This document shows positions 15,385 to 34,439 of a stretch of 64,000 nucleotides of DNA, one piece after another. The position numbers and the translations under genes were made by a program. The notes beneath the pieces are model-generated. The model saw only the letters and a list, made by a program, of their open reading frames with translations, searched no databases and was not told the origin of the DNA. The DNA is taken from sequence record DRR378314_1883; one strand, given 5' to 3'. The first letter of the stretch is position 1. Each line of letters begins with the position of its first letter.

Positions 15385-15454
15385 CCACTGGTCTACACAA
15401 AATGTCCATTCACCTAAAGTAGGGAATTATTACAATCTATTATTCGGTAATTTG
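15385..15454 (+). promoter_or_regulatory. Putative LytTR-type operator plus promoter of the signalling operon
   Basis: CCACTGGTCTAC (15385) and CCATTCACCTAA (15406), 21 bp apart; TTTG ends at 15454. Confidence 0.65.
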
Positions 15455-15478
15455 TAATTAACGGTAATACGACTTAAA

Positions 15479-15880
15479 ATGAATATTCTATTTATTGAAG
15501 ATGATGCTATAGAAACCATGAAACTTCAAAGAACTACGGTTAAGCTTGGTTTAAAACATAATATTATAGAAGCCAAAAATGGTGAGGAAGCCCTCACCGT
15601 TTTAAATTCCAATTCCCCATTGCCAGATCTTATTTTATTGGATCTCAATATGCCTAGAATGAACGGGATCGAATTCTTAAAAATACTTAAGGCGGACGTA
15701 AACTTTAGATACCTCCCAACTATTGTTTTAACAACATCGCAAAATAGGGCCGATTTATTGGAATGCTATAGGATTGGAATAGCCGGATACATTCTAAAAC
15801 CCTTAAAATATGAGGATTACGAGGATAAATTAAAAAAAGTATTGGAATATTGGGATATTAATGAACTTGTTAAGGCATAA
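15479..15880 (+). CDS. Single-domain response regulator
   Basis: IEDD, LLDLNMP, LTTS, KP motifs. Confidence 0.92.
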   Translation: MNILFIEDDAIETMKLQRTTVKLGLKHNIIEAKNGEEALTVLNSNSPLPDLILLDLNMPRMNGIEFLKILKADVNFRYLPTIVLTTSQNRADLLECYRIGIAGYILKPLKYEDYEDKLKKVLEYWDINELVKA

Positions 15881-15954
15881 CAGATTTCACGGGATTCACA
15901 ACAATTTATTTTCCATAAGTAATCGTTTTCCTACATTTGATCAAAACCTAAAAA

Positions 15955-16497
15955 ATGAAAGGAATTGTATTTACAGAATTTTTGGAAATGGTGGAATCCG
16001 AATTCGGTTTAGCAGTGGTAGACGCCATCATAGACGAATGCGATTTACCCTCCGAAGGCATCTATACTTCGGTTGGCACCTATGATTTTAATGAAATGGT
16101 TGCTTTAATTAAAAGTTTGAGCAATAATGTAGGCGTAGATTCCAATACTTTGATCTTTTCTTTTGGTCGTTATCTATTTACCAGTCTGGGCAAGGCACAT
16201 CCAGAAGTAATTCAAAGCTATAACAATCCACTAGGCCTTCTATATTCCATTGAAGACCATATACATGTCCATGTTCAAAAATTGTATCCAGAAGCTGAGT
16301 TACCCACATTTAAAATATTGGAAAAAACAGACACCTCCATTTCTATGATCTATTCCTCCTCCAGGGGTTTATATCGTTTGGCCCATGGTCTTATAGAAAA
16401 ATGTTTTGAACACTATAATGGATCTGCCCAAGTTTCCTATGAACTATTAAAGGCAGACGGTACCGAAGTGAAATTTGATATTATTCAAAATGGATAG
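15955..16497 (+). CDS. H-NOX haem NO-binding domain protein
   Basis: MKGIVF start, YTSVGTY, proximal His region IHVHVQKLYP, LPTF, YxSxR (YSSSR). Confidence 0.92.
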   Translation: MKGIVFTEFLEMVESEFGLAVVDAIIDECDLPSEGIYTSVGTYDFNEMVALIKSLSNNVGVDSNTLIFSFGRYLFTSLGKAHPEVIQSYNNPLGLLYSIEDHIHVHVQKLYPEAELPTFKILEKTDTSISMIYSSSRGLYRLAHGLIEKCFEHYNGSAQVSYELLKADGTEVKFDIIQNG

Positions 16498-18871
16498 TAA
16501 ACAAGAAATAATACTTCTCAAAAAGGCTTTGGAGCGACAGAAAAAAGCACGCATACAGGCCGAAAAAATCTTGGAAATCAAATCCAAGGAACTCTACGAT
16601 ACCTCCTTCCATTTAAAACAGGCAAATCATAAACTAGAAAGTTTATTAAATAAAAAAACTGCGGCCCTAAATGGCTCCTTTCTGGACATAATTGATCCCT
16701 ATGTAATCATGGACCTTAAGGCCAATGTCATAAATATGAACCTTTCTGCCAAAGAGTTTCTGGGTTATGACCATACAGTAGAACCTGTTAACTTAACACA
16801 ACTTGTACATAAAGATTACTTGGACTATACCAAGGAATCTTTCCAGATATTGATAAAAGCAGGGACAATCAAAAATTATAGGGCAAAAATCATACTTAAA
16901 AATAAGGAGGAAAGATATGTTCAGATAAACAGTAGCCTTATTTACGACCAGGACAGAAAACCCATTGCGGCCCAGGGAATTATAAGAGATATTAGCCAAG
17001 AAACAGAAATAAAACATTTGTTGGCAGAGCAAAAAAAACAACTTAATATCATAGTTGAAAATTCACCTCTTGGCATTGCATTAACCGTTAAAGGAAAAAT
17101 CATAAAGGCAAACCCTAGTTTTTGCAACCTCCTTGGGTACTCGACCAATGAGCTCAAAAATCAAACCATTAAGGATATTTCCGAACCTGTTGATTCCTTG
17201 GATTCGACGGACAAACTGGTTAAAATGAATGATGGAGAAATTGATAATTTTTCATGTATTAGAAAATACTTACGAAAAGATGGTAGCCATTTGTATGCCA
17301 AAACCCATATAAGCGCCGTAAGAAATAACCAAAATGAAGTAGAATTTCAAGTAACTACCATAGAAGACATTACCAAGGAAATGAAAGCGGAGGAAAAGTT
17401 AAAGGCCTCCGAAAACCGACTTTCTACACTTATACTAAACCTACAGACCGGGGTGCTCCTGGAAAATGAAGATCATAAAATCTCACTTACCAATCAACTT
17501 TTTTGTGACCTTTTTCAAATACCCGCCTCACCAGAGCAACTGATAGGGGCCGATTGTGTTGATGCGGCCGAGCAAAATAAGTCACTTTTTAAAAACCCAG
17601 ACTCCTTCGTGGCAAGAATTGAAAAAATTCTTAGCGATCAAGTTATGGTGGTCTCAGACGAACTGGAAATGGTAGATGGCAGAATCCTGGAGCGCGATTA
17701 TATCCCTATCTTTAATAATGGGGAATACAAAGGACACCTTTGGACATACCAAGACGTGACACTTAGTAGAAATTACAATAGAACTTTGGAAGCACAAAGG
17801 GAGAAATACAGTAGTATTATTGCTAACATGAATCTAGGACTTATTGAAGTAGACAATGACGATATTATTCAAATGGTAAACCAAAGTTTCTGCCAAATGA
17901 GCGCCTACTCCGAACAGGAATTATTAGGAAAAAAAGCAAAAGAGGTCATCAATATTACGGACAACACTATAATAAACGAAAAAAACCAAAAAAGGCTAGA
18001 AGGAAAGTCAGATTCCTATGAAATAGAAGTAAGGGATAAAAATGGGTCGTTAAAGCATTGGATGATCAGTGGGGCTCCAAGATATAATGAGTCTGGTGCC
18101 ATTATAGGGTCTATAGGCATACACTTGGATATTACAGAACAAAAACTGTTGCAATTGGAAAAATTAGAATTGGTCAAGGAATTGGAAAACAGTAATAAAG
18201 GATTACAAGAGTACGCCCATATAGTCTCACATGATTTAAAATCACCATTGCGAAGTATCATGGCCTTGTCTACATGGATGCTAGAAGACTACAGGGAGGT
18301 CTTGGATGAAGCAGGACAAAAAAATCTGCAATTGATGCAGGACAAAATAGAATTGATGGACAATTTGATCAGCGGCATTTTGGAATATTCAACTGCCAAT
18401 AGTTCCAATTTGGTCAATAGCGATATTGACCTAAACTGCGTGGTGTCAGATATAACCGATAGTATTTACATTCCAGAGCATGTCACCGTTACTGTACCTG
18501 TAAAATTACCAACCGTCTTGGCAGACAAAACAAAGATTCACCAATTGTTCCAGAATATTATTGGCAATGCCGTGGTACATATAGAAAAAGAAAAGGGACT
18601 GGTGGAAGTATTATGTTCGGAAACTGAAAACTACTGGCAGTTTACAATAAAGGATAATGGAGTAGGTATTCCCGAAAAATATCACACAAAAATATTTGAG
18701 ATTTTCCAATCTGTCGGTACCAATGAAAGATCTTCCGGAATCGGATTGTCTATCGTAAAGAAAATTGTAGATCGCTACAATGGACGTGTTTGGATAGATA
18801 GCCAAGTAGAGATTGGCACTAATTTTCATTTTACCCTTCAAAAAATTAAAAACAAACAACCCGTAACATGA
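16490..18871 (+). CDS. Cytoplasmic multi-PAS histidine kinase (H-NOX-associated)
   Basis: ATG 16490 overlaps the H-NOX end; N-terminal coiled coil ERQKKARIQAEKILEIKSKELY; about four PAS repeats; VSHDLKSP, DNGVGI, GIGLSIV. Confidence 0.92.
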   Translation: MDSKQEIILLKKALERQKKARIQAEKILEIKSKELYDTSFHLKQANHKLESLLNKKTAALNGSFLDIIDPYVIMDLKANVINMNLSAKEFLGYDHTVEPVNLTQLVHKDYLDYTKESFQILIKAGTIKNYRAKIILKNKEERYVQINSSLIYDQDRKPIAAQGIIRDISQETEIKHLLAEQKKQLNIIVENSPLGIALTVKGKIIKANPSFCNLLGYSTNELKNQTIKDISEPVDSLDSTDKLVKMNDGEIDNFSCIRKYLRKDGSHLYAKTHISAVRNNQNEVEFQVTTIEDITKEMKAEEKLKASENRLSTLILNLQTGVLLENEDHKISLTNQLFCDLFQIPASPEQLIGADCVDAAEQNKSLFKNPDSFVARIEKILSDQVMVVSDELEMVDGRILERDYIPIFNNGEYKGHLWTYQDVTLSRNYNRTLEAQREKYSSIIANMNLGLIEVDNDDIIQMVNQSFCQMSAYSEQELLGKKAKEVINITDNTIINEKNQKRLEGKSDSYEIEVRDKNGSLKHWMISGAPRYNESGAIIGSIGIHLDITEQKLLQLEKLELVKELENSNKGLQEYAHIVSHDLKSPLRSIMALSTWMLEDYREVLDEAGQKNLQLMQDKIELMDNLISGILEYSTANSSNLVNSDIDLNCVVSDITDSIYIPEHVTVTVPVKLPTVLADKTKIHQLFQNIIGNAVVHIEKEKGLVEVLCSETENYWQFTIKDNGVGIPEKYHTKIFEIFQSVGTNERSSGIGLSIVKKIVDRYNGRVWIDSQVEIGTNFHFTLQKIKNKQPVT

Positions 18872-20001
18872 AAATATTACAGGCCATTAAAATGAAAGGT
18901 TCAACCTTCAATTTTATCCAAGACCTACAAGTTCTAAAAAATCCACTTGTACTTGTTTTTGGAAATAGGTACATGTTACAGGCTAAGGATCTATATAGGG
19001 AAGTAAGAACTCTTTTCCCAAACGGACATATTGTTTTTGGCACTACTTCTGGTGAAATTATGGATGCCAATGTCTATGATGAGACTGTAGTTCTGACAGC
19101 CATAGAATTTGAAAAAAGCACTTTTCTTGTTAAGGCCAAAAATGTGGTTGATTTTGGCAACGATGACAAAAGCTTGGGACAGCAACTTATGTCCGAGTTT
19201 TCACAAGAGGGTTTACAGCATTTATTTATTGTTTCAGAAGGCAGTTCCGTAAATGGTAGCGCGCTGATTCATGGTGTGGAAATAAACAAGTTATGTAAGG
19301 TGGGCCTGTCAGGAGGATTATGTGGTGATGATGACCGATTTGAACTTACCTTATCATCATATAACGAACCCCCTAAAGAGGGTCAGGTGGTCGCAATCGG
19401 TTTCTATGGGGACACCTTGGAAATCACTAGTGCCAACTTTGGAGGTTGGACTGCATTTGGACCAGAGCGAATTATAACAAAGTCCAAGGACAATATCCTG
19501 TATGAATTAGATGGTAAGCCCGCATTGGACCTATATAAAAAATACTTGGGCAATAAAGCATCCGAACTTCCTAAATCGGCCTTGCTCTATCCGTTAAGTG
19601 TTAGAACACAAGGAGATTCCGAACCCATTGTTAGGACCATACTCAATATTGATGAATTGGAAAATGCCATGATTCTGGCCGGGGACGTACCTGAGAGATC
19701 TAAAGTTCAATTAATGATGTCTACTGTAGATGATATTGCCAACGGCGCTAATTTGGCAGCTAAAATAGCCATGCGAAATAGAAAAAATAAACCCGAATTG
19801 GCATTGCTCGTTAGCTGTATTGGAAGAAAATTAGTGATGGATCAGCGAACCGAAGAGGAGGTTGAAGAGGTTATTTCCGTAATAGGCCCAAGCGCCAAAA
19901 TTACAGGATTCTACTCCTATGGTGAAATGGCTCCCTTTGAAGGTCAAGAAACCTGTAAATTACACAATCAGACCATGACATTAACCTTATTCAGCGAATA
20001 A
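18868..20001 (+). CDS. FIST N/C domain protein (NosP-like haem sensor)
   Basis: GTTSGEI, GGLCGD, GGW, ELDGKPA, SCIGRK, GFYSYGE, HNQT. Confidence 0.9.
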   Translation: MKILQAIKMKGSTFNFIQDLQVLKNPLVLVFGNRYMLQAKDLYREVRTLFPNGHIVFGTTSGEIMDANVYDETVVLTAIEFEKSTFLVKAKNVVDFGNDDKSLGQQLMSEFSQEGLQHLFIVSEGSSVNGSALIHGVEINKLCKVGLSGGLCGDDDRFELTLSSYNEPPKEGQVVAIGFYGDTLEITSANFGGWTAFGPERIITKSKDNILYELDGKPALDLYKKYLGNKASELPKSALLYPLSVRTQGDSEPIVRTILNIDELENAMILAGDVPERSKVQLMMSTVDDIANGANLAAKIAMRNRKNKPELALLVSCIGRKLVMDQRTEEEVEEVISVIGPSAKITGFYSYGEMAPFEGQETCKLHNQTMTLTLFSE

Positions 20002-21077
20002 TGCATAACCTGCTCAAAAGACAACTCAAAAAGTATCTATCGGAAAACCTCAGTGAGGATGATGCCCTAAACCCTTTCTTAACAGCTGTTGAGAGGTCCT
20101 ACGAAAATTATGACGATAAACTGAGCATGTTGCAAAGAGCTACTACCATTAGTTCTGAAGAACTGTATGCAGCCAATCGCGAGCTGGAAAATGAAGCCCA
20201 ACGACAAAATCACATCCTTAATTCTTTAGAAAAAGCAATAACTAGTCTGGAAGCCAATCTAGAACATAAAAACCAATTGGATTATAACTCTGAAAACGAG
20301 TTTGATGCCGAAAAACTTGCAAAACATATAAGTGACCTGGCCAGAAAGGTGGCAAATATGGCTATGGAAAAAGATAATTTATTAAAAGATTTAAAAACCC
20401 AAAATGAATCACTGAACAATTATGCACATATAGTGTCTCACGATTTAAAATCACCGATTAGAAATATCAGTACATTGATGAATTGGATTTTGGAAGATGA
20501 AAAAGGGAAATTCTCACCGGAGAGTAGTATCAACTGTTCACTGATTACACAAAACCTTGGAAAAATGGACAAGCTTATAGATGGTATTTTAGAGCATGCC
20601 ACTATGGGTACCACAAATGAAAATTACGTTTCTTTCAGTTTAAAATCGGTACTGGACAATTTGAAACAAACGCTGTATATCCCTAAAAATATAAATATTA
20701 TATACGCTGACACACTGCCCATATTATTCTGTGAAATAAAACGTATTGAGCAGTTATTTATGAATTTAATTATCAACGCAGTAACAGCTACCGAGGAGAT
20801 TGAACAAGGGATTATTGAAATTAAGGCCAAAGATCAAGGCGACTACTGGAAATTTAGTATTACCGACAATGGTAAGGGAATTCCGGAAAATCATCAATCC
20901 AGTATTTTTGAAATGTTCAAAAAATTGGATACGGATAGTAAATCTACTGGTATTGGTCTTGCTTTAGTAAAAAAAATAGTAGATTTATACGAGGGTGAAA
21001 TTTCGTTGAAATCGGAGGAAAACAAAGGAACAACCTTTTTTTTCACATTAAAAAAACCATATGACCGAAGTACCTAA
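20001..21077 (+). CDS. Cytoplasmic histidine kinase (FIST-associated)
   Basis: MHNLLKRQL start, VSHDLKSP, DNGKGI, GIGLALV; no TM helix. Confidence 0.92.
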   Translation: MHNLLKRQLKKYLSENLSEDDALNPFLTAVERSYENYDDKLSMLQRATTISSEELYAANRELENEAQRQNHILNSLEKAITSLEANLEHKNQLDYNSENEFDAEKLAKHISDLARKVANMAMEKDNLLKDLKTQNESLNNYAHIVSHDLKSPIRNISTLMNWILEDEKGKFSPESSINCSLITQNLGKMDKLIDGILEHATMGTTNENYVSFSLKSVLDNLKQTLYIPKNINIIYADTLPILFCEIKRIEQLFMNLIINAVTATEEIEQGIIEIKAKDQGDYWKFSITDNGKGIPENHQSSIFEMFKKLDTDSKSTGIGLALVKKIVDLYEGEISLKSEENKGTTFFFTLKKPYDRST

Positions 21078-21381
21078 TCTTAATTACATAAAGGAGCTGG
21101 CCGGTGATGATATTGAGTTTGAGAAAAAATTCATCAGTATCATAAAAAAGGAGTTACCGGAAGAGGTAGATACATACCTGGGACAGATCCGAACAAATGA
21201 GCTATTAATGGCCGCTGAAACTGTACATAAATTAAAGCACAAATTTAACATCCTGGGACTAGAACAGGCCTACGGATATGCGGTAACCTATGAGGAAGAC
21301 CTTAGGAATGGCAATAATAAGATGGACATGGATTTTAGAGCAATACTTCAAAAAATAACAAAATACCTTACAACTATATAA
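21061..21381 (+). CDS. Hpt phosphotransfer protein
   Basis: 106-aa helical protein, LNYIKELAGDD start, VHKLKHK phospho-His motif. Confidence 0.85.
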   Translation: MTEVPNLNYIKELAGDDIEFEKKFISIIKKELPEEVDTYLGQIRTNELLMAAETVHKLKHKFNILGLEQAYGYAVTYEEDLRNGNNKMDMDFRAILQKITKYLTTI

Positions 21382-21382
21382 T

Positions 21383-22093
21383 ATGAATTGTATTATCATA
21401 GACGACGAGGCCGCGGCAAGGGCAATTGTAGCCCAATTATGCTCCAAAATATCGGAATTGGATGTTATTGCCGAATTTGATAATGCTATTGACGCATTAA
21501 AATTTCTAAATCAAGAATCCATAGATATTGTTTTCCTGGATATCCACATGCCTGGATTTTCTGGTGTCGATTTTGTACAGACCCTAAAAAATCCTCCTAA
21601 AATTGTACTGACTACCTCCGACACCAATTTTGCCATAGAGGCCTATGAATACGAGTCCATTGTGGACTACTTAGTAAAGCCTATTACCTTGGACCGCTTT
21701 CAAAAATCCGTTCAAAAATTAAAGAACATATGACAACAGTCACCCAATAGCCCATCTAAGAACGAAGGAGGGTCAGCCTCAGGGGAAGATCTTTATATCA
21801 ATATAGATAGACGCCTAATTAAATTGAAGCTGAATGAGCTTACGGTCATAGAAGCCAAAGGGGATTATATTGATATCAAGACCGAAAAAGAGGTGTATCA
21901 CGTACATACTACCTTAAAGAAAATTAAGGAGAAACTGCCGGAAAAGGTTTTCATGCAAATACATAGGTCTTTTATAATTAACTTCAGCAAAATTATAGAT
22001 ATTGAGGACAATAGCGTCTTAATAGGTAAGAACGTTATTCCGATCAGTCGCTCCAATAGACCTGAACTGATGCGAAGGCTAAACCTTCTGTAA
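21383..22093 (+). pseudogene. LytTR-family response regulator interrupted by in-frame TGA at 21731-21733
   Basis: REC ORF 21383-21733 and LytTR ORF 21824-22093 share a frame; reading through TGA gives QQSPNSPSKNEGGSASGEDLYINIDRRLIKLK into EAKGDY...QIHRSFIIN...PISRS. Confidence 0.88.
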
Positions 22094-22138
22094 AAACAGC
22101 ACAAATATATTGGACTTAACCTTCACACTGGAAGATTT

Positions 22139-24214
22139 TTAATTCGATTTGCTTTCCGCCTCCAAATTGGCAAAGAACAATGGCTGTTTGGTCAAGGACC
22201 ATTTTAGTTTAAATCCAATTTCCGTAAATTCAAAACCAGCGGCCGTGGCCGATGCTATATTGCTATATTTGCCGTAAATACTTCCACTGAGACGTTTGCC
22301 AAATTGGTGCTGCATGGAAGCCTCTGCCCTGAAAATTGCAGTTTGAGGGTCGTTTTCCACCTTTTGAATTCCTGTAGCCACACTGGCCATATAGTTGGTA
22401 TGAGTGGATATTTTTCCCCTGATATCCCCAAAAACTTCCCCAGCCTGATATTTTTCTGGGCTAAAATATATGGTAGGCACTTGCTCTCCGAAGGTGATAT
22501 ACTGATAATTAAGACCGAACTTTAATGCCGGTTTCTGTAATACCGTATAATACAAAGAGGTAAATAAGAGGTTACGACTGTTGTTGTCGGTCTGCTGGGT
22601 GTACATCAATTGCGTATACCAACCCAAATTTACATTGGTGCCCAGATTGTAATTAAGTCCATAATGATTCATCACAATTTCGCGCTCTATCAAATCAGCA
22701 TTAAAATTCTGCACTTCCCTTTGGTAGCCAAGTTCTAGATTTTGCAACTTAAAAGGCTTTATTTTTAATTTGGCATCCAAAACCGGTTGTGTGTAAGCTG
22801 TTTCCATAAACCTACTGTTATTGAATCCCAATACAGTGGCCATATCTACATTAGGGGCCAATTTGTATCCAAAACCAACCAACACAACATGGGATTCCGC
22901 CTTATTCTGGGTAACCGTATTCTCTGTAGTTCGGTACTGGTAGTTTAGTGTGGTTTTAAATTTGGTGGAAAAAGGTACAAAGGCATTTACGGAACTGGAA
23001 AAAGCCACGTTATTTCCATTGTCAAAGGTATAGGCAGCATGTTCTTCAATACTTGGGGTATGCAAACCATTGAGTTTTTCAATAAAACCTTGTGCATCCT
23101 TTTGATTCTTAAAAATTTTCAAGGTCTGAAATGCCGCCTTATAAGCAGGTACGATTCTATCTGAAGCAAAAAGTGCATTTGCCTTGCCTAGGTTTCCGTC
23201 AAAAGAAACACTGTCCTTAGCGAGTATGGCATCATAGCTTGATAAACTTGCCTTAAAATCACCGGTATACATTCCTAGTGTAGCATTTAATGCCTGAACC
23301 CAATTGCCATTCGGATATACCAGGGCTAGACGGTCTATTTCCTTTCTGGCTTCGGCAAACTTCCTATTCCATATCAGGGCCTGCACATAGCGGTCGAAGG
23401 TGTGCTGATTAAGCACCGGATCGCCAAATGACTCCACTTTTTCTTTAGCTTCCAAGGCCATTTTCAGAGCCATTTTTTCATTTCCGGCTATGTGTTCTGC
23501 AAGTGCAATTCCATTTATAGCGGTGATGGAATCTTTAGCGGATGTGGCATATCTTCGGTAGGTATTTTTGGCACTATCCGTCTCTTTGGTTATCAATTGT
23601 AGGTTGGCCAAATTCAACAATACCTCCTTATCTTCTGGAAAGTCTCCAAAAATTTCCTGTAGCAATTGTTGTCCCATCCCATAATTTTGTGCATTCACAA
23701 ACTCATTGGCGTATCCCAATTTTATATACTTCCTTGAAATCTTGGCACCTTCATTATCCGGTTGCAGTGCTATGGCCTTATTTACCCAATTCAGTGCCGT
23801 TTCATATTCCCTTAGATTGCTCAAGGTATTGGCATACCCCAACAAAGCCCCAAACTTATCTGGATTTTTGGCCACCATATCCTTATATAGGGGTTTGGCC
23901 TCCTTAAATTTTCCTGCCCATAAAAGGGATTCTATATAATTTATGGCCACCTCGTAATCATTGGGGTACTTTTGTTGTAAATCTCCAAATAAAGCATTGG
24001 CCGTTTTAGGCGCTCCATTTAGTCCTACTGCCCTTCCGTAACAAATCTGTGCGGTCTTGTTTTCGGAATCCGATTCCAAAAAGGCTTCAAAAAAAATCTC
24101 GGCATCTGCAAAATTACCATTTTCCAAAAGTTCAAATCCCTTTTGCATAGATTGCTGGGCCTGTATGGAAAATGACAATAATAAGAATGTAGTAATTAAT
24201 TTATAAATATTCAT
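22139..24214 (-). CDS. TPR-repeat protein with C-terminal outer-membrane beta-barrel (PgaA/PelB/BcsC-like architecture)
   Basis: Signal peptide, about 380 aa of TPR-like helices, then alternating aromatic strands including YFSPEKYQ. Confidence 0.75.
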   Translation of the reverse strand: MNIYKLITTFLLLSFSIQAQQSMQKGFELLENGNFADAEIFFEAFLESDSENKTAQICYGRAVGLNGAPKTANALFGDLQQKYPNDYEVAINYIESLLWAGKFKEAKPLYKDMVAKNPDKFGALLGYANTLSNLREYETALNWVNKAIALQPDNEGAKISRKYIKLGYANEFVNAQNYGMGQQLLQEIFGDFPEDKEVLLNLANLQLITKETDSAKNTYRRYATSAKDSITAINGIALAEHIAGNEKMALKMALEAKEKVESFGDPVLNQHTFDRYVQALIWNRKFAEARKEIDRLALVYPNGNWVQALNATLGMYTGDFKASLSSYDAILAKDSVSFDGNLGKANALFASDRIVPAYKAAFQTLKIFKNQKDAQGFIEKLNGLHTPSIEEHAAYTFDNGNNVAFSSSVNAFVPFSTKFKTTLNYQYRTTENTVTQNKAESHVVLVGFGYKLAPNVDMATVLGFNNSRFMETAYTQPVLDAKLKIKPFKLQNLELGYQREVQNFNADLIEREIVMNHYGLNYNLGTNVNLGWYTQLMYTQQTDNNSRNLLFTSLYYTVLQKPALKFGLNYQYITFGEQVPTIYFSPEKYQAGEVFGDIRGKISTHTNYMASVATGIQKVENDPQTAIFRAEASMQHQFGKRLSGSIYGKYSNIASATAAGFEFTEIGFKLKWSLTKQPLFFANLEAESKSN

Positions 24215-27228: not shown

Positions 27229-28782
27229 CTAATCGTTCTCCTTTCTATTTTTGGAAGTATTGTTTAGAAAGTAGAAAGCTTTTTTTGGTTTACCTGCCAA
27301 ATCCAAGCAACCAAAATATCTTTGGGGTTCCCTTCTCCATGGCCGCTTGCCCACTACTGAAGACGGAACCCCTTCAAAATCGTATAAGGTCCAGAAAAGA
27401 AAAGGTATTTCGGCCTTCTCTAGAATAGGTTGAAATTCCTCATAATAAGCCGCCTGTTTATCTTCCGAGTTTAGAAAAGCATTCCACACTCCACTATAGG
27501 AAGACCTCCCATATTCCTGAAGTACCGCAGTTTTATCTTTTGGAATTGCGTTTCGCAATTTTTGATAGGAAGGTATAAAACCCGAAATTTCCCTGTAATA
27601 GTGAAAAGAAACAAAATCCACTACCTCTGCCATATTTACCGCAGCCTCCGGACTGGACCATCCTATGGTGATAGGATGCACCCCGTCCCATTTTTTTATC
27701 CGTAGAGCCAGCTCATTTAACCAGGCCATTACATTTTCTTTTCCCCTAGACCCAAAGTCCAAATCGGGTTCGTTTTTGAGGTCCCAGGCCAATAAACTAG
27801 GATGGTCCTTTAAGGTGGTTACCAACTTTTCAGCATGTGCAAATGTAGCTGTCCAATTGGCAACACTATAATCTCCATAAAAATCAAAGAGGGTGATGAC
27901 CACCTTGAGGCTTTCCTTATCCGCAGCATCCAAAAGGGTCCTGACTTTGGCAAGTCTGTCTTCATTTACCCGTGCCTCCCCAAAGTCCGAATACGGAATA
28001 AATATACGGACAGTGTTGAGACCCATATCCCTAATAATTCTAAAATCAGACGAAATAACCTTTTCGTTAAACCGATTTCCAAAAGTATCCCACGGACTGT
28101 CCTGTGGATAATAATTGAGTCCTTTTATTTTACTTAATGCCTCCGTATTATCAACGCCAATTACGGGCCCTTCCTTCACCTCAGGTTCGGTTATTACCCT
28201 AACAAAATGACGTACCCTCCAAAAGCCGTCCTCCAAAAGCATAATTACCTGGAATGTTGCTGTTTCCCGATATTCCAAGACGGGATTGCCATCTATAAAT
28301 CCCTTCTTATAAAGTGACACATTCTTATCTAGAAAAGAGATTTGGGTTCCATCGGTGCTATAGAAATTCAATTTGGGCCAATGTTCCAAAGTGGTTTGTA
28401 CAAAGGTGGTACCCTTTTCCTTGTTTATGTTGAGTATTTTAAAAAGTTTGGTCCTCGCACTTTCGGTAAAGTAGTCGGCAATGCCGTATTGATTGTTGGT
28501 AGCTAGGGAGGCATTTTTCACGTACCAACCATTAAGATAGTCCCGTTCAACTTTTTCCAAAGTTTGTGGCTCAATTGGGCGGCCTTCCACGGAAGTGGTA
28601 TCCCAAACCACCTTGGGAAAATAAATTTGAGCCTTTTCTCCACCTATATGCAGAAGGGTGGAGCGCTCCGCACCGGTATTGAGATAGGACCAAACCGAAC
28701 TTATCCCGAAAAGCACCAATGCATTAATGGCCAGGAATGTACCAATCAAAAGAACCCTTAAGATGTTTTTATTCCACTTCAT
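27229..28782 (-). CDS. Membrane-anchored clan GH-A glycoside hydrolase (GH5/GH2-like TIM barrel)
   Basis: N-terminal TM; KGLNYYP, GLNTVRIF, acid/base WDLKNEPD, SFHYY, nucleophile LQEYG, FWTL. Confidence 0.85.
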   Translation of the reverse strand: MKWNKNILRVLLIGTFLAINALVLFGISSVWSYLNTGAERSTLLHIGGEKAQIYFPKVVWDTTSVEGRPIEPQTLEKVERDYLNGWYVKNASLATNNQYGIADYFTESARTKLFKILNINKEKGTTFVQTTLEHWPKLNFYSTDGTQISFLDKNVSLYKKGFIDGNPVLEYRETATFQVIMLLEDGFWRVRHFVRVITEPEVKEGPVIGVDNTEALSKIKGLNYYPQDSPWDTFGNRFNEKVISSDFRIIRDMGLNTVRIFIPYSDFGEARVNEDRLAKVRTLLDAADKESLKVVITLFDFYGDYSVANWTATFAHAEKLVTTLKDHPSLLAWDLKNEPDLDFGSRGKENVMAWLNELALRIKKWDGVHPITIGWSSPEAAVNMAEVVDFVSFHYYREISGFIPSYQKLRNAIPKDKTAVLQEYGRSSYSGVWNAFLNSEDKQAAYYEEFQPILEKAEIPFLFWTLYDFEGVPSSVVGKRPWRREPQRYFGCLDLAGKPKKAFYFLNNTSKNRKEND

Positions 28783-30001
28783 TTTGGGTCAATTTTAAAA
28801 TCATTTCTTTTTTTACACCTGCGCATTCCACAGCTAATTGATAATCCCCAACGGCATACAGTCCACTATCAAGTTCAAAGGACCCCAAACCTGATCTGGA
28901 ATTGGTTTGTTTGACTTCAATTAAATCTCCTTTGCTATCGTAAATTTTTAATTCTATAAGTAGTCCTTCCGGCACCAATTGCCCCATAAATCCAAGTATC
29001 GGCCCTACTGTGACGTTGCGATTATCGTTGGCTAATTTCACGTCAAAATCTTTTATGGCACTTTTAAAATTCAGCTGAAGCTCATTGCTCTTTGCCTCAC
29101 CCGTAATATACGCAGTAACCCCCCATTCTTCCTCCTCATTAGGGTGCAACATATTGGAGGTTGCAATTCCGGCCAAGGTAGCCCCCATAGATTTGAGCAA
29201 TTCACCACGCTTATTTTTAACTATGAAATTAACCAAGGTTCCATCGTTAACCGTATTCCCAAACCTATCCGTTATTAGTGAGGTTATAAATCTCACGACT
29301 TGATTACCATCCGCAAAATCATGTACGCGTTCAAATCCAATTTTGAAATCAGTACTATTGGAGGGGGATACAATGCTTGTAAGCTCTTTGGAAGTTACCC
29401 CGTTTACCGCCGCAGTAACCAACATACGTCCCGATTTTTCTTCCCCATAAAGTAGGCTATAGGCAAGACCATCTTTAAGGCGAACTTCAAATACATTGGT
29501 TTTGAAATCTATTAGTTGGCTGATAGACACTACAGTACTATCCGGAAGTGGGTTGTCATAATCGTCGGTTGGGATAATGGTAAGCATGGAATAATCTTTT
29601 CCCCCTGCCCTAATACTTCTTGGGCCAAAATAGGTTTCTATTTTGGAGAGATTCCCAATCCGCGGACCAAGATAAAATTTGTCCGACAACAGTACCTTGG
29701 AATTGGATACGAGCTTCCAGTGGTATTCCCCAGCCTCTTCCGTGAATTCTGGGGGTATATTGAACATGGCCTTATCATTGATTATTTTAGGCTGAAAAAA
29801 CAGGGGACCAAAACTATTGTCCAACAAAAGAAAAAGATTTCCCTTTCCTTGAAGTTGGAATTGGAATTCCAAGCCTTTCCCAACGGTTGAAGGCTGAGAA
29901 ACAGCCACTACTTCCACCTTCAGATCGGTATTGAGTGCCTCCTCCCTCTCCTTGCAACCAAGGCCCATCAACAATACCAAAATGTAGAGCTTCCACTTCA
30001 T
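28769..30001 (-). CDS. Lipoprotein with Ig-like (invasin/Big-type) repeats
   Basis: ATG at 30001 gives MKWKLYILVLLMGLGC lipobox; repeated motifs DDYDNPLPDST, DRFGNTVNDGT, GQLVPEG. Confidence 0.65.
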   Translation of the reverse strand: MKWKLYILVLLMGLGCKEREEALNTDLKVEVVAVSQPSTVGKGLEFQFQLQGKGNLFLLLDNSFGPLFFQPKIINDKAMFNIPPEFTEEAGEYHWKLVSNSKVLLSDKFYLGPRIGNLSKIETYFGPRSIRAGGKDYSMLTIIPTDDYDNPLPDSTVVSISQLIDFKTNVFEVRLKDGLAYSLLYGEEKSGRMLVTAAVNGVTSKELTSIVSPSNSTDFKIGFERVHDFADGNQVVRFITSLITDRFGNTVNDGTLVNFIVKNKRGELLKSMGATLAGIATSNMLHPNEEEEWGVTAYITGEAKSNELQLNFKSAIKDFDVKLANDNRNVTVGPILGFMGQLVPEGLLIELKIYDSKGDLIEVKQTNSRSGLGSFELDSGLYAVGDYQLAVECAGVKKEMILKLTQNEVE

Positions 30002-30002
30002 A

Positions 30003-33000
30003 TTATCTTGGATTTCCAATATAACTGTTCAGTTCCAACTTTATAAATTGAAACCCAGATCCCTTAAGTGGCTGTAGTTGGTCATATGAATGCTGCCGAA
30101 TCCGTTCTTGAATCACTTTTCCTGCAATTTGCGCATTGGGCAGGCCATTAACAAAACAGTTTTTTAGACTGCTGTCGACAATCTCCAACCCTCCCAATTC
30201 CAAATTATTGTAATGGAACGACTGTTTGCGCTGTACGCGGACCCCTTCACGTACAAATTTGTGGTCCACCCAAAGAAGATTTTTCTCAGTATCGTAATAA
30301 GAAATCAATAGTAAGGGAATGGTTACTTCCTGAACCCCTGAATTGTACAGTTGTCCCTTAAACCCGTTTGGCAACAATTGTAATTCCTGTAGCACCAATC
30401 CCTTATAAAGATCGGTATTGGCCACATTTCCCGCACACTGCAAATTGAATTTGGTAGGTTGCTCCGAAAATTGCACTGGTGTAAATTCATCTGGATTGAA
30501 AGTAGGAGGAATAGTGTCTTTGGTCTGTGACCATGCAATGCCTTCAAAATTAATTTTAAAGGTGGTGGTTTCCATTGGCATTAGCTTATGCTTCAGATGA
30601 AACTTGGCATTATAATTGGCCAATTCTTTATCGTCATCATTGTACAGGGTGGCCTTTAACACCACGTCGGCAGGTACATTGTCCACATTCTGCAACTCGC
30701 CGATAACCGAGTAACTACCGTCCATTTTAACCAATTTGGCACTGAGCACCTCCAGAACAGGTTGTTTCAGTACATCCTCATGATGGGTCTGTTCTGTGGT
30801 TATTTTTCGGCGACCATGGTTATAAAAAGTAGTACTGTTGGAAGTAAACAATTGATCAGGGGGAATGTCGCTATCTAAATAGGAAGGTTCTATATACCAT
30901 TTCCCTTGACGTTTTACCAAATCATGATTATAGGTCTTTTGTATTCTTTCCAAGGGGGTTACCCAATAGGTTTTTACCTCCGCCCTGGCATTTTGGTCAG
31001 TCTCATTGGATAGTTTTATTTCCATGGCGTCCAATTTGGCATAGGAGCTTAGGATACCATCGGTTACAGATACTTCCTGCATATATTGGGCAATCGAAAT
31101 TTCCTTTTCTATATCCAAAAATGAGTGTGCTGTCTCAAATTCCTTAAAATCCAAGGCATTATAATAGGCCTTAACCACATTTTGTGGAGACCTTTGGGCT
31201 GTGTTGTGGATATAAAATTGGTAGATTCCAAATCCGAACAACGATAAGACCAAGAATGCCCAGAGATGATTTACACTGATAAGGAATGATGGAAATTTCC
31301 TATATTCAATAGCATACTTCATATAGTCCGGCTGTTGGATCATTCTTGAATTAAGTATTCGAATCCAGAGCAGTTGAATATTGATAACAAAGGCTATCAC
31401 TACCGTTAGAATAGGCACAATGCCCCACATTAGCTTCAGCCATTGGGCTACATCCTCTTTGGGAAGAATGGAGGGCACCGGGGGTACGTTTAATTTTTCC
31501 CAAACCATAATACCATTTTCCAACTGTTGTAGACGTTGCCATCCACAGAAATAAAGGATGGGGTCATAGAATTTATCATTACTAAAGATATACTTTAGGT
31601 TATACTTTTCCGGAACGGTCAAAAACTGCTGAAGGGAACCAATACCTTCTACCCCCCTAAATTTCGAATTCTCCAAACGCTCAATGGCCCTGGTCGTCAA
31701 TTCCGGTAATCGTCTTGCAGAATGATAATTACCATCAACGGTCATGGCATTTGTCTGCGACGAGAGCCAAGCCATTTGATCCCCGAAACCCAAGGGCAAA
31801 TATCGCCACTGGTCGTGTTGGTCCTGATTTAAAAAATTGACGATGGGCAACATTTTTATTTTTTGGGGTTGGGAAGGTCGAAAATACCCCAAACTCATTG
31901 TAAAAATCACCATTAAAAGTATACTGCCACCTATTAAAATACTAAGCACCCTATGATAGAAAGCCCCAAATCGTTGCTGAAGTTGAAGTTTTAGATCCCC
32001 TTCGGCCAATCTATAGATGAATTCCCCAAAAATAGGTAATGCCATTATGGTAGCCCAAAGGGTGAAACGGTCCAAGGTCAGAATATTAAAAGCTGTTTCG
32101 CCCAATACCTTCAGTGGAATTGGGGTTGTACCCCCAGTGCCCAAAATAGTAAGTACCGATATGGACAAACCAAAGAACAAATATCGTTTACTGTAAAACC
32201 GGTAAAAAATATAGGGCAGAAAGAACAGCAGGATTCCCCAAGGCACAATAAAGAAAACCAGACCTGAAGAGGTCACTTCCAAAAAATTATCCCTGGAACC
32301 ATGTGGAATGGGGATTTGGGTAATAGGGTTCTTTTTGGAATTGACCCAATAGGGCAAAATACAGACCACTATTAATACCAAAGAGGAAAAACCAAATCCA
32401 ACTATACGCCAAAAGAGCTGTTTAAAAGATTTGAAGAACACCTTAAAAGTTAATTCCCTATTGGTAGATACCTTATCACGGGATACATCCATAACGACCA
32501 TTCCAATTAATGGAAAGACAAAAAATACCATTCCAAAAATAGGTGTAACATGATGAGAGGTAACCGTTACGGCAATCAATGATAAGGAAGTGAGTAAATA
32601 ATGCGACCTCCCCGTTTTGATCCATAGATATATCTCAGGCAGGGCATGCAAAAGAACTGAAAGTCCAATAATACTGGGTAACTGCCCAAATATATGTAAG
32701 GTTTCTATAAAGGTTGTGGAAAATACCGCCATCAAGGAAGTATAGCCTGCTACTTTTTGATTCCCCGTCATTAAAAGCCCAAAACGGTAAGTACCTGTAA
32801 TAAAAAGAACAATTCCCAAAAGAGCTACCGTGAACAATCCAAATTTTAAGCCACCAACATAGGATAAAAGGGCAATGGATTGATGAACTAAAGGTGGATA
32901 ACCCTGAACTGTAAACCCCGTATACCATCTATAATCCCATGGTTCGAACCAACTATTGGCATAATGATCGGCAAAAAAAAGATGGATCAAAGCATCATAG

Positions 33001-33089
33001 GTAGATTCCAATGTAAAAAAAATACTGGCACCGTGAAATGTAAGTCCAAAAAACAGGGCCAAGACCAGTAAACTATTGGTGTTTTTCAT
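30003..33089 (-). CDS. Large polytopic membrane protein, GT-C-like glycosyltransferase with C-terminal soluble domains
   Basis: TYDALIH after TM1, WYTGF..GYPPL loop, more than 12 TMs, SHH motif; C-terminal repeats resembling FxLYD Ig-like domains (VIGELQN...ATLYNDD; GQLYN...SYYDTE). Confidence 0.65.
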   Translation of the reverse strand: MKNTNSLLVLALFFGLTFHGASIFFTLESTYDALIHLFFADHYANSWFEPWDYRWYTGFTVQGYPPLVHQSIALLSYVGGLKFGLFTVALLGIVLFITGTYRFGLLMTGNQKVAGYTSLMAVFSTTFIETLHIFGQLPSIIGLSVLLHALPEIYLWIKTGRSHYLLTSLSLIAVTVTSHHVTPIFGMVFFVFPLIGMVVMDVSRDKVSTNRELTFKVFFKSFKQLFWRIVGFGFSSLVLIVVCILPYWVNSKKNPITQIPIPHGSRDNFLEVTSSGLVFFIVPWGILLFFLPYIFYRFYSKRYLFFGLSISVLTILGTGGTTPIPLKVLGETAFNILTLDRFTLWATIMALPIFGEFIYRLAEGDLKLQLQQRFGAFYHRVLSILIGGSILLMVIFTMSLGYFRPSQPQKIKMLPIVNFLNQDQHDQWRYLPLGFGDQMAWLSSQTNAMTVDGNYHSARRLPELTTRAIERLENSKFRGVEGIGSLQQFLTVPEKYNLKYIFSNDKFYDPILYFCGWQRLQQLENGIMVWEKLNVPPVPSILPKEDVAQWLKLMWGIVPILTVVIAFVINIQLLWIRILNSRMIQQPDYMKYAIEYRKFPSFLISVNHLWAFLVLSLFGFGIYQFYIHNTAQRSPQNVVKAYYNALDFKEFETAHSFLDIEKEISIAQYMQEVSVTDGILSSYAKLDAMEIKLSNETDQNARAEVKTYWVTPLERIQKTYNHDLVKRQGKWYIEPSYLDSDIPPDQLFTSNSTTFYNHGRRKITTEQTHHEDVLKQPVLEVLSAKLVKMDGSYSVIGELQNVDNVPADVVLKATLYNDDDKELANYNAKFHLKHKLMPMETTTFKINFEGIAWSQTKDTIPPTFNPDEFTPVQFSEQPTKFNLQCAGNVANTDLYKGLVLQELQLLPNGFKGQLYNSGVQEVTIPLLLISYYDTEKNLLWVDHKFVREGVRVQRKQSFHYNNLELGGLEIVDSSLKNCFVNGLPNAQIAGKVIQERIRQHSYDQLQPLKGSGFQFIKLELNSYIGNPR

Positions 33090-33172
33090 TAATGGATTGT
33101 AACAGAATTATAACAATTTAAAGGTAGCATTATTGTATAAGAGTCTATATATCAGTCATCGCATCAAAAAAT

Positions 33173-33243
33173 CCATTCACCTACAGAAAACAGCCACTCA
33201 ACTTTTGACCATCATTTTAAAGGGTAGCTTGTTGCTACATTTG
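33173..33243 (+). promoter_or_regulatory. Putative LytTR-type operator plus promoter of the REC-GT2 gene
   Basis: CCATTCACCTAC (33173) and CCACTCAACTTT (33194); consensus -7 TACATTTG ends at 33243. Confidence 0.65.
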
Positions 33244-33299
33244 CTCCAGAAATCACAATAAACCAAGCGATTTAAATAAATAAACTTAAAACTTAACCT

Positions 33300-34439
33300 A
33301 TGAAAATTTTAGCCATTGACGACCAACAACTAATTCTCCTATCAGTAGAGAAAAGATTATCCGAACTCGGATATGCAGTAAAAACGGCCAACAGCGGGGC
33401 CAGCGGAATAAAGCTATTCGATAGCTACAAACCAGATCTTGTTTTGGTTGACATGAACATGCCCGATATGTCCGGGATGGAAGTGGTAAAACATATCAGA
33501 TTTTTCAAAGATTCCAAAACACCTGTGCTGGTCATGTCCGGAAATACTGATGAATCTATAATTCTTAATAGTTTTATGCTTGGTATTGACGATTATATGA
33601 AAAAACCTGTGAGTTTGGATGAAATGACCGCTAGGATCAAAAGAATAGTCGGAAGTCCAAAAATACAGGTTAATGGATTGCCAAAAGCAAGTACGCGTAT
33701 GCTGCAAAAAAATTGTGTGGGTGTAGTAATTCCCTGCTATAATGAGGAGGATAGACTGTCCAGTGAGCTGTTCCGAAATTTTGCCTTCGAGAATCTTGGT
33801 TACCATCTATGTTTTGTAAACGACGGAAGTACGGACAATACTTTGGAAGTATTGGAAGAACTTAGAAAAGGAAACGAGTCCAACATAAGTATCTATAACT
33901 GTGATAAAAATGGTGGAAAAGCGGAAGCGGTCAGACAAGGAATACAGTATTTAATGCAGGACGAACAATTTGATTATGTAGGGTATCTTGATGCGGATCT
34001 TTCTACAGACTTCAGGGATTTTGACGACTTGGTCAAAACCATGGAAACCTCTAAATTTAAAATTGTGAGTGGCTCGCGTATCAGCAGAATGGGTGCTGAC
34101 ATCACCAAGGAATCTGCCCGAAAAATAATTAGTAAAACCATAAATATTATTATTCAAAAGATTCTTGGCATGCCCTTTAAGGATACCCAATGCGGTGCCA
34201 AGGTAATGAACAGGGAAATTGCAGCAACTATGTTTGCAAAGAAATTCATAACCAAATGGTTATTCGATGTTGAAATATTTATGCGCATGCGTAAGCATTA
34301 CGGTAAAAAGGAGGCGACCAATATGATCTGCGAACAACCATTAAAGCGCTGGATTCATGCCGACGGATCTAAACTATCTATGAAGGATTCCATCAAAATT
34401 GTAGGCCAATTGGCAAAGATTGCGATAGTTTACAATTAG
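33300..34439 (+). CDS. Response regulator receiver fused to GT2 polyprenyl-phosphate glycosyltransferase
   Basis: REC (IDD, VDMNMP, MSG, KP) then GT2 VIPCYNE, VNDGSTD, GKAEAV, DADLS, GSR, DTQCGAK, WLFDVEI. Confidence 0.92.
   Translation: MKILAIDDQQLILLSVEKRLSELGYAVKTANSGASGIKLFDSYKPDLVLVDMNMPDMSGMEVVKHIRFFKDSKTPVLVMSGNTDESIILNSFMLGIDDYMKKPVSLDEMTARIKRIVGSPKIQVNGLPKASTRMLQKNCVGVVIPCYNEEDRLSSELFRNFAFENLGYHLCFVNDGSTDNTLEVLEELRKGNESNISIYNCDKNGGKAEAVRQGIQYLMQDEQFDYVGYLDADLSTDFRDFDDLVKTMETSKFKIVSGSRISRMGADITKESARKIISKTINIIIQKILGMPFKDTQCGAKVMNREIAATMFAKKFITKWLFDVEIFMRMRKHYGKKEATNMICEQPLKRWIHADGSKLSMKDSIKIVGQLAKIAIVYN

Follow-up and report, generated by a model that had tools for sequence, protein, structure and literature searches.

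At positions 15341-34511 (approximate limits, no strand assigned) of sequence record DRR378314_1883, a stretch of 64,000 nucleotides (nt) from a marine flavobacterium that is referred to here as the window, genes for a putative haem-based gas-sensor phosphorelay lie next to genes for the predicted synthesis and export of a surface glycan. The gene order from 15479 to 34439 matches the list given in an earlier note on this DNA, and a Pfam scan of the open reading frames (ORFs) of the window returned the domains claimed there. With a probability of roughly 0.6, the best explanation of the block as a whole is a conserved flavobacterial regulon in which a gas-sensor relay would control a glycan island. 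Judging from the genome comparisons described below, the locus is a conserved regulon and not a chance neighbourhood, and the wiring of its two halves appears well supported; we infer the ligand, the binding, the phosphotransfer steps, the sign of regulation and the product.

Because their starts and stops overlap or abut, the seven relay genes, all on the plus strand and encoding proteins without hydrophobic segments, can be read as one predicted operon of soluble proteins. It begins with REC1 (15479-15880, +), a stand-alone receiver (Pfam Response_reg, 72 bits) whose acidic pair, LDLNMP aspartate, TTS and LKP motifs are conserved in 24 sequences and which presumably serves as relay intermediate. 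The second gene encodes an H-NOX protein, a predicted haem sensor (15955-16497, +; HNOB, 132.6 bits with a cut-off of 25.5). Its His104 aligns with the proximal histidine of the Shewanella H-NOX and its YSSSR stretch fits the YxSxR motif; both are conserved in 25 sequences, and we assume for these residues the roles that they have in other H-NOX proteins. The nearest solved structure is that of the Kordia algicida H-NOX (6BDD, E 9.4e-57; 6BDE, 1.4e-57; residues 1-179). The Shewanella H-NOX was matched at 7.4e-21 and the chemotaxis-receptor H-NOX chain 4fdk, presumably of the O2-binding type, at 9.8e-4. In each of four cluster-bearing genomes the HNOB gene is single-copy.

The start codon of the next gene, which encodes a cytoplasmic histidine kinase with four PAS domains, HisKA and HATPase (16490-18871, +; Pfam; ORF from 16475), overlaps the H-NOX stop codon by 8 nt. 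It is followed by a FIST_N+FIST_C gene of NosP-like architecture (18868-20001, +; 137.9 and 117.4 bits) and by HK2 (20001-21077, +), a second soluble histidine kinase composed of HisKA and HATPase (Pfam). The earlier note had referred to the NosP (FIST) kinases of proteobacteria; the FIST protein of the window reaches 61 bits with the NCBIfam NosP model (NF041558), whose cut-off is 450, and is not a NosP equivalog. The N-terminal 135 amino acids (aa) of HK2 match no known family, and its match to the NahK/ErcS model is weak (6.5e-21, below cut-off); a predicted complex of the FIST protein with HK2 scored 0.11, the mark being 0.34. The putative Hpt phosphotransfer protein (21061-21381, +) scores 17.1 bits in Pfam, below the cut-off of 24.6, its ortholog in a Euzebyella locus (L040) scores 26.5 bits, and the histidine of its VHKLK motif is invariant in 51 sequences. 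The last gene of the operon, for a LytTR response regulator (21383-22093, +), is split into a receiver part (21383-21733, 71.1 bits) and a LytTR part (21824-22093, 66.8 bits), both above cut-off.

The glycan half begins with the gene for a secreted TPR protein (22139-24214, -) that has TPR families above cut-off, a signal-peptide-like N terminus and a barrel-like C-terminal half. A profile search of the PDB returned only TPR chains, and among its language-model (Atlas) neighbours, which we treat as leads only, are PgaA_barrel (0.92) and the PelB C-barrel (0.91); the protein is presumed to be an exporter and is called TPR-porin below. The next genes encode a multipass Polysacc_synt_3 (flippase-like) protein (24468-25706, +; Pfam) and a soluble GT4 glycosyltransferase (25958-27187, +; Pfam). 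A membrane-anchored clan-A (GH5-like) hydrolase (27229-28782, -; Cellulase, 37.1 bits; N-terminal transmembrane (TM) anchor) has glutamates in KNEP and QEYG motifs that are invariant in 61 sequences and that we take to be the catalytic pair of clan A. The gene for an Ig-like (Invasin_D3/Big_1) putative lipoprotein with a lipobox-like LGC (28769-30001, -; Pfam) has its ATG 1 nt after the stop codon of the gene for a GT-C-like multipass protein of 1028 aa (30003-33089, -). The latter is predicted to have about ten TM segments in residues 1-620 and a soluble C-terminal domain of about 400 aa. Sequence and profile searches yielded no PDB relative of it. A profile search of 1.8 billion representatives retrieved 1019 relatives at E ≤0.001, and five of 36 relatives scanned passed a family cut-off, one for PMT_2 (34.4 bits) and four for PTPS_related (31.2-38.2 bits), the ones that passed being shorter homologs; both are GT-C families. 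Residues E28 and D32, just after TM1, are invariant, and one distant homolog carries a fused Wzy_C domain.

The last gene of the island encodes REC-GT2 (33300-34439, +), a receiver (Response_reg, 89.8 bits) fused to a Glycos_transf_2 domain (85.4 bits). Receiver residues D7, D8, D51, S80 and K102 are invariant in 33 sequences, as is the DAD motif at 231-233. The solved chains nearest to the GT2 part are ArnC (9hwj, 2.8e-11), GtrB (5ekp, 3.6e-10) and DPMS (5mlz, 1.2e-6). None of the seven glycan proteins was named as an equivalog by NCBIfam. Membership of the Pel systems was considered and rejected: no Pel family model was matched in Pfam or NCBIfam, and a GGDEF-like receptor was not found. Two labels of the earlier note, 'TPR-barrel' and 'GT-C-like', stand in part, in that the TPR portion is firm, the barrel is a matter of sub-threshold hits and Atlas leads, and GT-C one of weak and transitive profile hits.

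The two halves are tied together by a common operator. Each of the four larger intergenic regions of the island holds paired 9-nt direct repeats with a start-to-start spacing of 21 nt. The operator measures 35 nt, with the two 9-nt repeats 12 nt apart, and has the consensus CCATTCGTC-N12-CCAyCCACC. When the 64 kb were scanned with a 35-nt weight matrix, built from 135 regions of 71 loci outside Arenibacter, exactly four sites were found (starting at 15385, 24324, 25847 and 33173), all on the plus strand and scoring 33.9-38.2 bits. No other site in the window exceeded 9.3 bits; in 100 shuffles, the mean maximum was 8.2 bits and 20.9 bits were never exceeded. This agrees with the earlier note, which had claimed one promoter motif recurring across both halves and had let the system start at 15385, the first copy of the operator.

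Operator A (15385-15419, +; 37.6 bits) lies 94 nt upstream of the REC1 ATG and is presumed to be the site of autoregulation. Although regions of this type were outside the training set of the matrix, a site was present upstream of REC1 in 16/16 loci with a LytTR gene in the flank (median distance to the ATG, 93 nt) and in 0/4 loci without one; the glycan promoters of these four loci, which belong to Euzebyella and Pseudozobellia, are likewise without sites. Operator B (24324-24358, +; 38.2 bits) is located in the divergent region between the TPR-porin and flippase genes, 110 nt from the ATG of the former and 144 nt from that of the latter, and sites of at least 20 bits occupy this region in 42 of 52 non-Arenibacter loci. 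Operator C (25847-25881, +; 33.9 bits) is found 111 nt upstream of the GT4 ATG, and operator D (33173-33207, +; 35.2 bits) in the divergent region between the genes for the 1028-aa protein and REC-GT2, 84 and 127 nt from the respective start codons. Because B and D lie in divergent regions, the four predicted operators can serve all six transcription units, the relay operon included.

Simpler patterns gave a similar picture. A half-site pattern, derived from the window sites themselves, has eight hits with at most one mismatch in the 64 kb, compared with 1.62 expected, all of them within 15385-34412. Genome-wide, a 17-nt pattern hit the island in three of three instances in G007 (5.3 Mb) and in four of seven in G008; it had no hit anywhere in the genome of G001, the nearest genome compared, and a reversed control pattern had none in any genome. 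About 30 nt downstream of each operator site there is a box containing TTTG, which we liken to the -7 element of Bacteroidetes. Targets of the LytTR family are described in the accessible part of a published account as pairs of imperfect direct repeats, each of 8-13 bp, with about 12 bp between them (PMC4064291). The geometry of the 9-12-9 operator, present at four promoters and conserved across genera, fits this rule, and a regulon defined by the LytTR protein and this operator is the part of our model that we hold to be highly probable.

Three of the genes also have a leader in common, AAACTTRACCT, directly before the ATG of the TPR-porin (24212-24225, -), GT4 (25947-25960, +) and REC-GT2 (33289-33302, +) genes. 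It occurs three times in the 64 kb, with 0.13 occurrences expected, and may be a shared translation-start or post-transcriptional element. In other genera it precedes 9/59 TPR-porin, 18/68 GT4 and 10/55 REC-GT2 orthologs and none of the orthologs of eight other genes; with these numbers the idea of a general feature was dropped.

The block is variable among strains. G001, which is 100% complete, has no match to a 19.2-kb query. Its sequence corresponds to the window on the left (9000-15340 = G001:C1:1518116-1511779, 93% identity) and on the right (34512-42000 = G001:C1:1511748-1504261, 99% identity), and the two flanks are joined by about 30 bp where the window has the block; a genome search of G001 detected neither an H-NOX gene nor a homolog of the 1028-aa protein. 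Arenibacter troitsensis (L008) and A. palladensis (L010) carry the block at this site, which is bounded by an APH and a sulfatase gene. This comparison indicates that within a genus the presence of one half goes with that of the other, the unit having been either lost in G001 or gained elsewhere. The possibility that the block is a mobile element was dropped, as the Pfam scan of the island revealed no integrase or transposase domain and the same site is occupied in the two species just named. The six relay proteins from REC1 to Hpt are 98-100% identical to those of A. troitsensis, and the two parts of the LytTR regulator 94-96%.

Two local departures from this overall similarity may be recorded. 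The left flank, 93% identical to G001 as a whole, falls to 82% in the final 428 bp of the APH gene, the right flank being 99% identical; the left edge of the block may thus be the boundary of a recombination event. Within the island, the hydrolase is just 78% and the Ig-like lipoprotein 86% identical to their A. troitsensis counterparts (window 27229-30001); the periplasmic and surface parts of the island thus appear mosaic or fast-evolving.

Conservation was assessed in 74 loci centred on the flippase-like protein, with up to 10 kb on each side and one genome per species, 58 of which span at least 20 kb. All six core glycan genes are present in 55 of these 58 loci. REC-GT2 is encoded in 51; the other seven, all from Aquimarina, have a GT2 protein without receiver. 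The LytTR regulator was found in 45/58 and Hpt in 44/58 loci. The sensors are more variable: H-NOX is present in 24/58 and FIST in 28/58, with either of them in 39/58 (H-NOX only 11, FIST only 15, both 13, neither 19). Five loci seemed to be without relay, and when the upstream DNA of three of them was inspected (L015, L041, L052) the operon was located just beyond the flank in all three.

A more even sample comprised 201 Flavobacteriaceae genomes from 200 genera. The 1028-aa protein is encoded in 43 of them, HNOB in 74, the LytTR ortholog in 73 and REC-GT2 in 37. HNOB was detected in 40/43 genomes with the 1028-aa protein, as compared with 34/158 without it, and in 34 of the 40 the two genes share a contig and lie no more than 32 kb from each other, whereas one pair is distant and five are on different contigs. 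Among the 43 genomes, 41 have the LytTR ortholog and 34 REC-GT2. Likewise, the LytTR ortholog occurs in 65/74 genomes with HNOB versus 8/127 without. The linkage of the halves supposed in the earlier note thus extends over many genera, in the 58 loci as in the 34 of 40 gene pairs. Across the phylum (301 genomes), the 1028-aa protein has close orthologs in 8/23 genomes of this family and in 0/278 from 49 other families.

Two exceptional arrangements are informative. In four loci of Euzebyella and Pseudozobellia the order REC1-HNOX-kinase-FIST-kinase-Hpt is kept, with neither a LytTR gene nor an operator by the cluster. Conversely, a genus devoid of this glycan cluster (G058) possesses the same REC1-HNOX-kinase-Hpt-LytTR operon together with the operator. 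After that operon (L106, C2, 13899-18707) come genes for a UDP-glucose dehydrogenase, an epimerase, a lone receiver, a REC-Bac_transf fusion and an OEP-family protein. We read this as reuse of the relay-operator cassette with another predicted receiver-fused glycan enzyme. In Euzebyella a LytTR ortholog of 76% identity is encoded on a contig other than that of the cluster (L092, G006:C2, 9536-16386), beside a REC1-like gene and 4 kb from a GT4 gene.

Cyclic di-GMP (c-di-GMP) seems to play no part in this system. In agreement with the earlier note, no GGDEF, EAL or HD-GYP domain was detected in the scanned ORFs of the window (at least 80 aa in 13-37 kb, at least 100 aa elsewhere). Five whole genomes (three of Arenibacter, one of Ulvibacterium and one of Euzebyella) yielded GGDEF in 0/5 and EAL in 0/5, control genomes being positive. 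Because both domains are missing from these five genomes, the c-di-GMP-free design evidently belongs to the lineage and not just to the window.

Based on these data we propose the following model. Two soluble sensor-kinase pairs, H-NOX with the four-PAS kinase and FIST with HK2, would set the phosphorylation level of the relay. A four-step relay fits because both kinases are devoid of receivers and the operon supplies a lone receiver plus Hpt; phosphoryl groups would pass from His to Asp to His to Asp through REC1 and Hpt and end up in two receivers. The first of these belongs to the LytTR factor, which most likely binds the 9-12-9 operator and controls the island, the relay's own operon included. 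Because the operator is located upstream of or between all six units, the predicted regulon would be essentially identical with the island and autoregulated.

The second output would be the receiver of REC-GT2, controlling an enzyme of the ArnC/GtrB/DPMS type that loads a sugar onto a polyprenyl-phosphate carrier. At the outer side of the inner membrane, the lipid-linked sugar would then serve as donor for the 1028-aa GT-C-like protein. GT2 enzymes that load a carrier and GT-C enzymes that use the donor are known to form pairs, and here the two genes are divergent neighbours with operator D common to both. The other five glycan proteins (GT4, flippase-like protein, GH5-like hydrolase, Ig-like lipoprotein and TPR-porin) would have the task of providing a surface polysaccharide, trimming it and exporting it. 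Because GGDEF and EAL genes are missing from these bacteria, phosphorylation of REC-GT2 could take the place of the c-di-GMP receptors of proteobacterial exopolysaccharide machines. That REC-GT2 is fed by this very relay we consider rather probable, and we incline to a similar degree towards an exported polymer as the product. NO (nitric oxide) is our preferred ligand of the H-NOX protein, if with some reserve; in proteobacteria, NO-bound H-NOX usually inhibits its kinase, as stated in the available text of PMC8738867.

Taken further, REC-GT2 might be a response regulator whose output is a lipid-linked donor; its phosphorylation would gate the supply to a GT-C polymerase within seconds, and the cassette would be portable among glycan pathways. 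In that version, which we put forward tentatively, phosphorylation of REC-GT2 would replace c-di-GMP receptors of the PelD, BcsA-PilZ and Alg44 type, and different genera would plug the cassette into different pathways, using REC-GT2 here and a REC-phosphoglycosyl transferase elsewhere. The earlier note had likewise assumed two c-di-GMP-independent outputs. Its transcriptional output is backed by the block-wise presence, the synteny and the operator, yet the LytTR gene is broken in the window itself. Its enzyme-level output finds indirect backing in the invariant acceptor residues of REC-GT2, the four LytTR-less loci and the REC-Bac_transf fusion of G058.

A number of findings weigh against the proposed regulon, and the most direct one concerns the regulator. 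As hinted at in the earlier note, the LytTR gene of the window is not intact: its receiver and LytTR parts are in one frame, which is interrupted in the linker by an in-frame TGA (21731-21733). The frame is open, with 234-242 aa, in 51 of 54 related loci, the remaining three lying at locus edges where the frame could not be extracted, and A. palladensis has a serine at the position of the TGA. In the contig of a run that is possibly the source of this DNA the TGA is present at a word depth of 28.5, whereas contigs of three other runs have ACA (runs X1, X2, X3 and X7), a comparison that is not independent of assembly. The stop codon is present in the data of this strain. Because of this premature TGA the transcriptional arm is probably disabled or altered here, and the regulon may not work in this strain as described.

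Further points of the same kind come from the operator, from the sampling and from the protein assignments. Operators C and D were found in only 26/52 and 16/30 other loci, respectively, and four loci with a LytTR ortholog (L023, L024, L027, L031) have no site by a matrix that was initialised from one window site, just as the degenerate (IUPAC) patterns were derived from window sites. Since the genomes are related, the samples behind the counts given above are not independent, and the counts describe rather than test. H-NOX is encoded in 34 genomes without the glycan cluster; on this evidence the relay does not serve this glycan set exclusively, and in 8/8 examined genomes with H-NOX away from the cluster it is still part of this operon. 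The FIST protein, being NosP-like and not NosP, is a doubtful NO sensor. The C-terminal half of the TPR protein shows only sub-threshold matches to Porin_4, DUF481, BBP2_2 and BCSC_C (4.6e-5 in the Maribacter ortholog). The 1028-aa protein of the window has no GT-C family above cut-off and PTPS_related is weak in 22/30 orthologs (best 2.7e-5), which makes GT-C-like a reasonable assignment, though a weak and transitive one. ArnC and GtrB have C-terminal membrane helices; REC-GT2 has no hydrophobic segment above threshold, and thus no predicted TM helix. Because the Pfam scan of the island revealed neither an initiating phosphoglycosyl transferase nor a processive membrane synthase, the pathway sketched above is incomplete, also as regards the primer and the polymerase.

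How far do these points favour other explanations? It is very improbable that the halves are neighbours merely by chance or hitch-hiking, with no regulatory link between them. A broken regulator beside intact glycan genes would be in line with such a view; the operator common to both halves, their block-wise presence or absence and the linkage conserved across genera argue against it. A narrower objection accepts the transcriptional wiring and denies that REC-GT2 is a target of the relay, its receiver being served by another kinase or acting as a phosphate sink or dimerisation module. Each genome encodes dozens of receiver proteins, for example 10-18 regulators of the LytTR type, and the receiver-less GT2 proteins in the same cluster of seven Aquimarina loci indicate that the fusion is dispensable. 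We nevertheless consider this objection quite unlikely to be right, given that the phospho-acceptor residues are invariant and the gene lies behind operator D, that in the four LytTR-less loci REC-GT2 is the sole terminal receiver near a relay ending in Hpt, and that another genus has the same operon together with a phosphoglycosyl transferase fused to a receiver.

The remaining two alternatives leave the regulon intact and change its input or its product. The relay might sense something other than NO, such as O2, the redox state, CO or a metabolite, the label 'NO' stemming from proteobacterial homologs. The kinase adjacent to H-NOX contains four PAS domains with no assigned ligand, the FIST protein is no NosP equivalog and, as the 58 loci illustrate, sensor modules are freely swapped. 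Set against this are the conserved haem-ligand histidine and YxSxR motif, the greater similarity of the H-NOX protein to the NO-binding Shewanella type than to 4fdk, and the aerobic life of these bacteria, characterised H-NOX proteins of aerobes being sensors of NO according to the accessible text of PMC8738867; all in all, we judge a different signal to be unlikely. Similarly, the glycan genes could decorate an envelope molecule (lipopolysaccharide, capsule or glycoprotein) as a three-part system resembling Gtr, Arn or PMT, with no exopolysaccharide being secreted. The best-supported pair of the island, a polyprenyl-phosphate GT2 and a GT-C-like protein, is the signature of periplasmic decoration systems, and among the Pfam domains of the island none pointed to an initiating transferase, a polymerase or a regulator of chain length. 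This possibility too seems to us the less credible one, since a TPR protein with a porin-like half (Atlas neighbours PgaA and PelB) and an anchored hydrolase are typical of polymer export machines, and one distant homolog of the 1028-aa protein has the fused Wzy_C domain.

To our knowledge, H-NOX and NosP signalling has been worked out almost solely in Proteobacteria, where it mostly ends in c-di-GMP enzymes. The closest counterpart of the regulon proposed here is the syp polysaccharide locus of Vibrio fischeri, where the HnoX-controlled kinase HahK acts via the Hpt domain of SypF on SypG and SypE (PMC8738867, PMC12369376). As far as the accessible parts of these sources go, V. fischeri has, and the regulon proposed here would have, an H-NOX-controlled kinase, an Hpt step and two regulators, one transcriptional and one post-transcriptional, with no involvement of c-di-GMP. 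The term 'new system' used in the earlier note was therefore too strong, c-di-GMP-independent control of polysaccharide by H-NOX and Hpt being known from V. fischeri. The systems differ in the transcriptional regulator, a LytTR protein here and a sigma-54 activator there, and in the second output, which here would be a receiver fused to the enzyme itself. Moreover, the kinases are soluble and not hybrid, REC1 and Hpt are separate proteins, the glycan genes are unrelated, and the lineage, judged by five genomes, is devoid of c-di-GMP. Another common trait is the presence of STAS proteins, small STAS-domain genes being found in 38/74 related loci (for example L015:9679-10017, L061:11366-11992 and L106:13299-13583). 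They lie beside the flippase gene in the loci inspected, and in L015 an operator is located upstream of the STAS gene. Many relatives may accordingly possess an additional layer of partner switching; a remnant of a STAS gene was looked for in the window and not found.

The juxtaposition of H-NOX and kinase genes also resembles the HnoX-HnoK systems of Shewanella oneidensis and Vibrio cholerae (with HnoB, HnoC and HnoD), in which, according to the accessible text of PMC8738867, the kinase has several receivers as its phosphorylation targets, one of them a transcription factor, and biofilm is under its control. There the outputs are mainly the control of a c-di-GMP phosphodiesterase, unlike the situation in a lineage whose five genomes have neither GGDEF nor EAL. 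A FIST_N+FIST_C gene directly upstream of and overlapping a histidine kinase gene is reminiscent of NosP-NahK; by contrast, the score of the FIST protein is far below the NosP cut-off, the kinase is not a hybrid, and haem binding is only putative. A LytTR response regulator associated with exopolysaccharide genes is known from AlgZ/AlgR of Pseudomonas aeruginosa, control being a prediction in our case. The half-site found here is CCATTCGTC, or CCGTTCGTC in several loci, the former being nearly and the latter fully identical with the 9-mer of AlgR (PMC4064291). According to the available part of the same source, the sites of AlgR often occur singly and a long way from the promoter, whereas those described here are paired and at a fixed distance of about 90-135 nt from the start codon. 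Furthermore, the input would arrive via an Hpt relay and not, as for AlgR, from a dedicated membrane kinase.

On the side of the glycan genes, the GT2 match and a large multipass partner with PMT_2 and PTPS_related relatives recall the ArnC/ArnT, GtrB/GtrC-type and DPMS/PMT pairs. The GT2 and GT-C-like genes lie side by side in divergent orientation, both in the window and in the genomes compared by eye (for example G157, G189 and G023). Unlike the GT2 members of the ArnC, GtrB and DPMS pairs, REC-GT2 carries a fused N-terminal receiver and has no predicted TM helices, and its partner has an additional domain of about 400 aa that belongs to no family. The TPR-porin, with predicted signal peptide, N-terminal TPR array and putative C-terminal porin-like half (sub-threshold), may be built like the exporters PgaA, PelB and BcsC. 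The Pel machinery includes the c-di-GMP receptor PelD, the deacetylase/hydrolase PelA, PelC, PelF and PelG, and the GT4, flippase-like protein, periplasmic hydrolase and lipoprotein of the island recall PelF, PelG, PelA and PelC, respectively. Unlike in the Pel, poly-N-acetylglucosamine (PNAG) and cellulose systems, no family model was passed, and neither a c-di-GMP receptor nor a deacetylase is present here.

For direct control of a glycan enzyme by phosphorylation there are two partial parallels. In cyanobacteria such as Anabaena, phosphorylation of the fused domain of STAS-Bac_transf proteins (All4160/XssP) directly controls polysaccharide output, as stated in the accessible part of a preprint (bioRxiv 10.64898/2026.04.08.717354). 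A fusion of a receiver with a BcsA-like GT2, MTH_548, has been catalogued in Methanobacteriaceae (archaea), with no function assigned in the available text (PMC5847659). The protein described here differs from both in that a receiver predicted to be phosphorylated on aspartate is joined to an enzyme of the ArnC/GtrB type, not to Bac_transf or a BcsA-like protein. The H-NOX protein of Kordia algicida, which comes from a marine flavobacterium, was studied only as an isolated haem domain, according to the accessible text of PMC7356049. In a search that was poor in subscription journals, no published account of this flavobacterial relay, operator or glycan set was found.

The locus is a concrete and widely conserved candidate for the coupling of a gas or redox cue to matrix production without c-di-GMP, with a defined operator and a putative regulon of about 15 genes. 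What the window contributes is a natural relative that lacks the island, a regulator gene with a natural nonsense mutation and evidence for reuse of the relay-operator cassette with another receiver-fused glycan enzyme. REC-GT2 is a candidate for an enzyme-level switch that is amenable to work with purified protein, and an uncharacterised pair of GT-C-like protein and TPR-porin may join the known polysaccharide export machines. Marine Flavobacteriaceae are major colonisers of surfaces and algae. DNA nearly identical to the LytTR/TPR-porin part was detected in runs X2-X18, metagenomes of algae, plastic, sediment, tidal flat, biofloc, estuary and sludge from 12 studies.

Outside the block, the window encodes a second signalling set at 1087-4711, consisting of an AraC-type helix-turn-helix protein, a lone receiver and a PAS histidine kinase. 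Farther along, 14 kb downstream of the block, a gene at 48811-49710 encodes a MerR regulator that contains a B12-binding domain, and in a Euzebyella locus (L040:20142-21041) a protein with MerR and B12-binding domains is encoded directly after REC-GT2.

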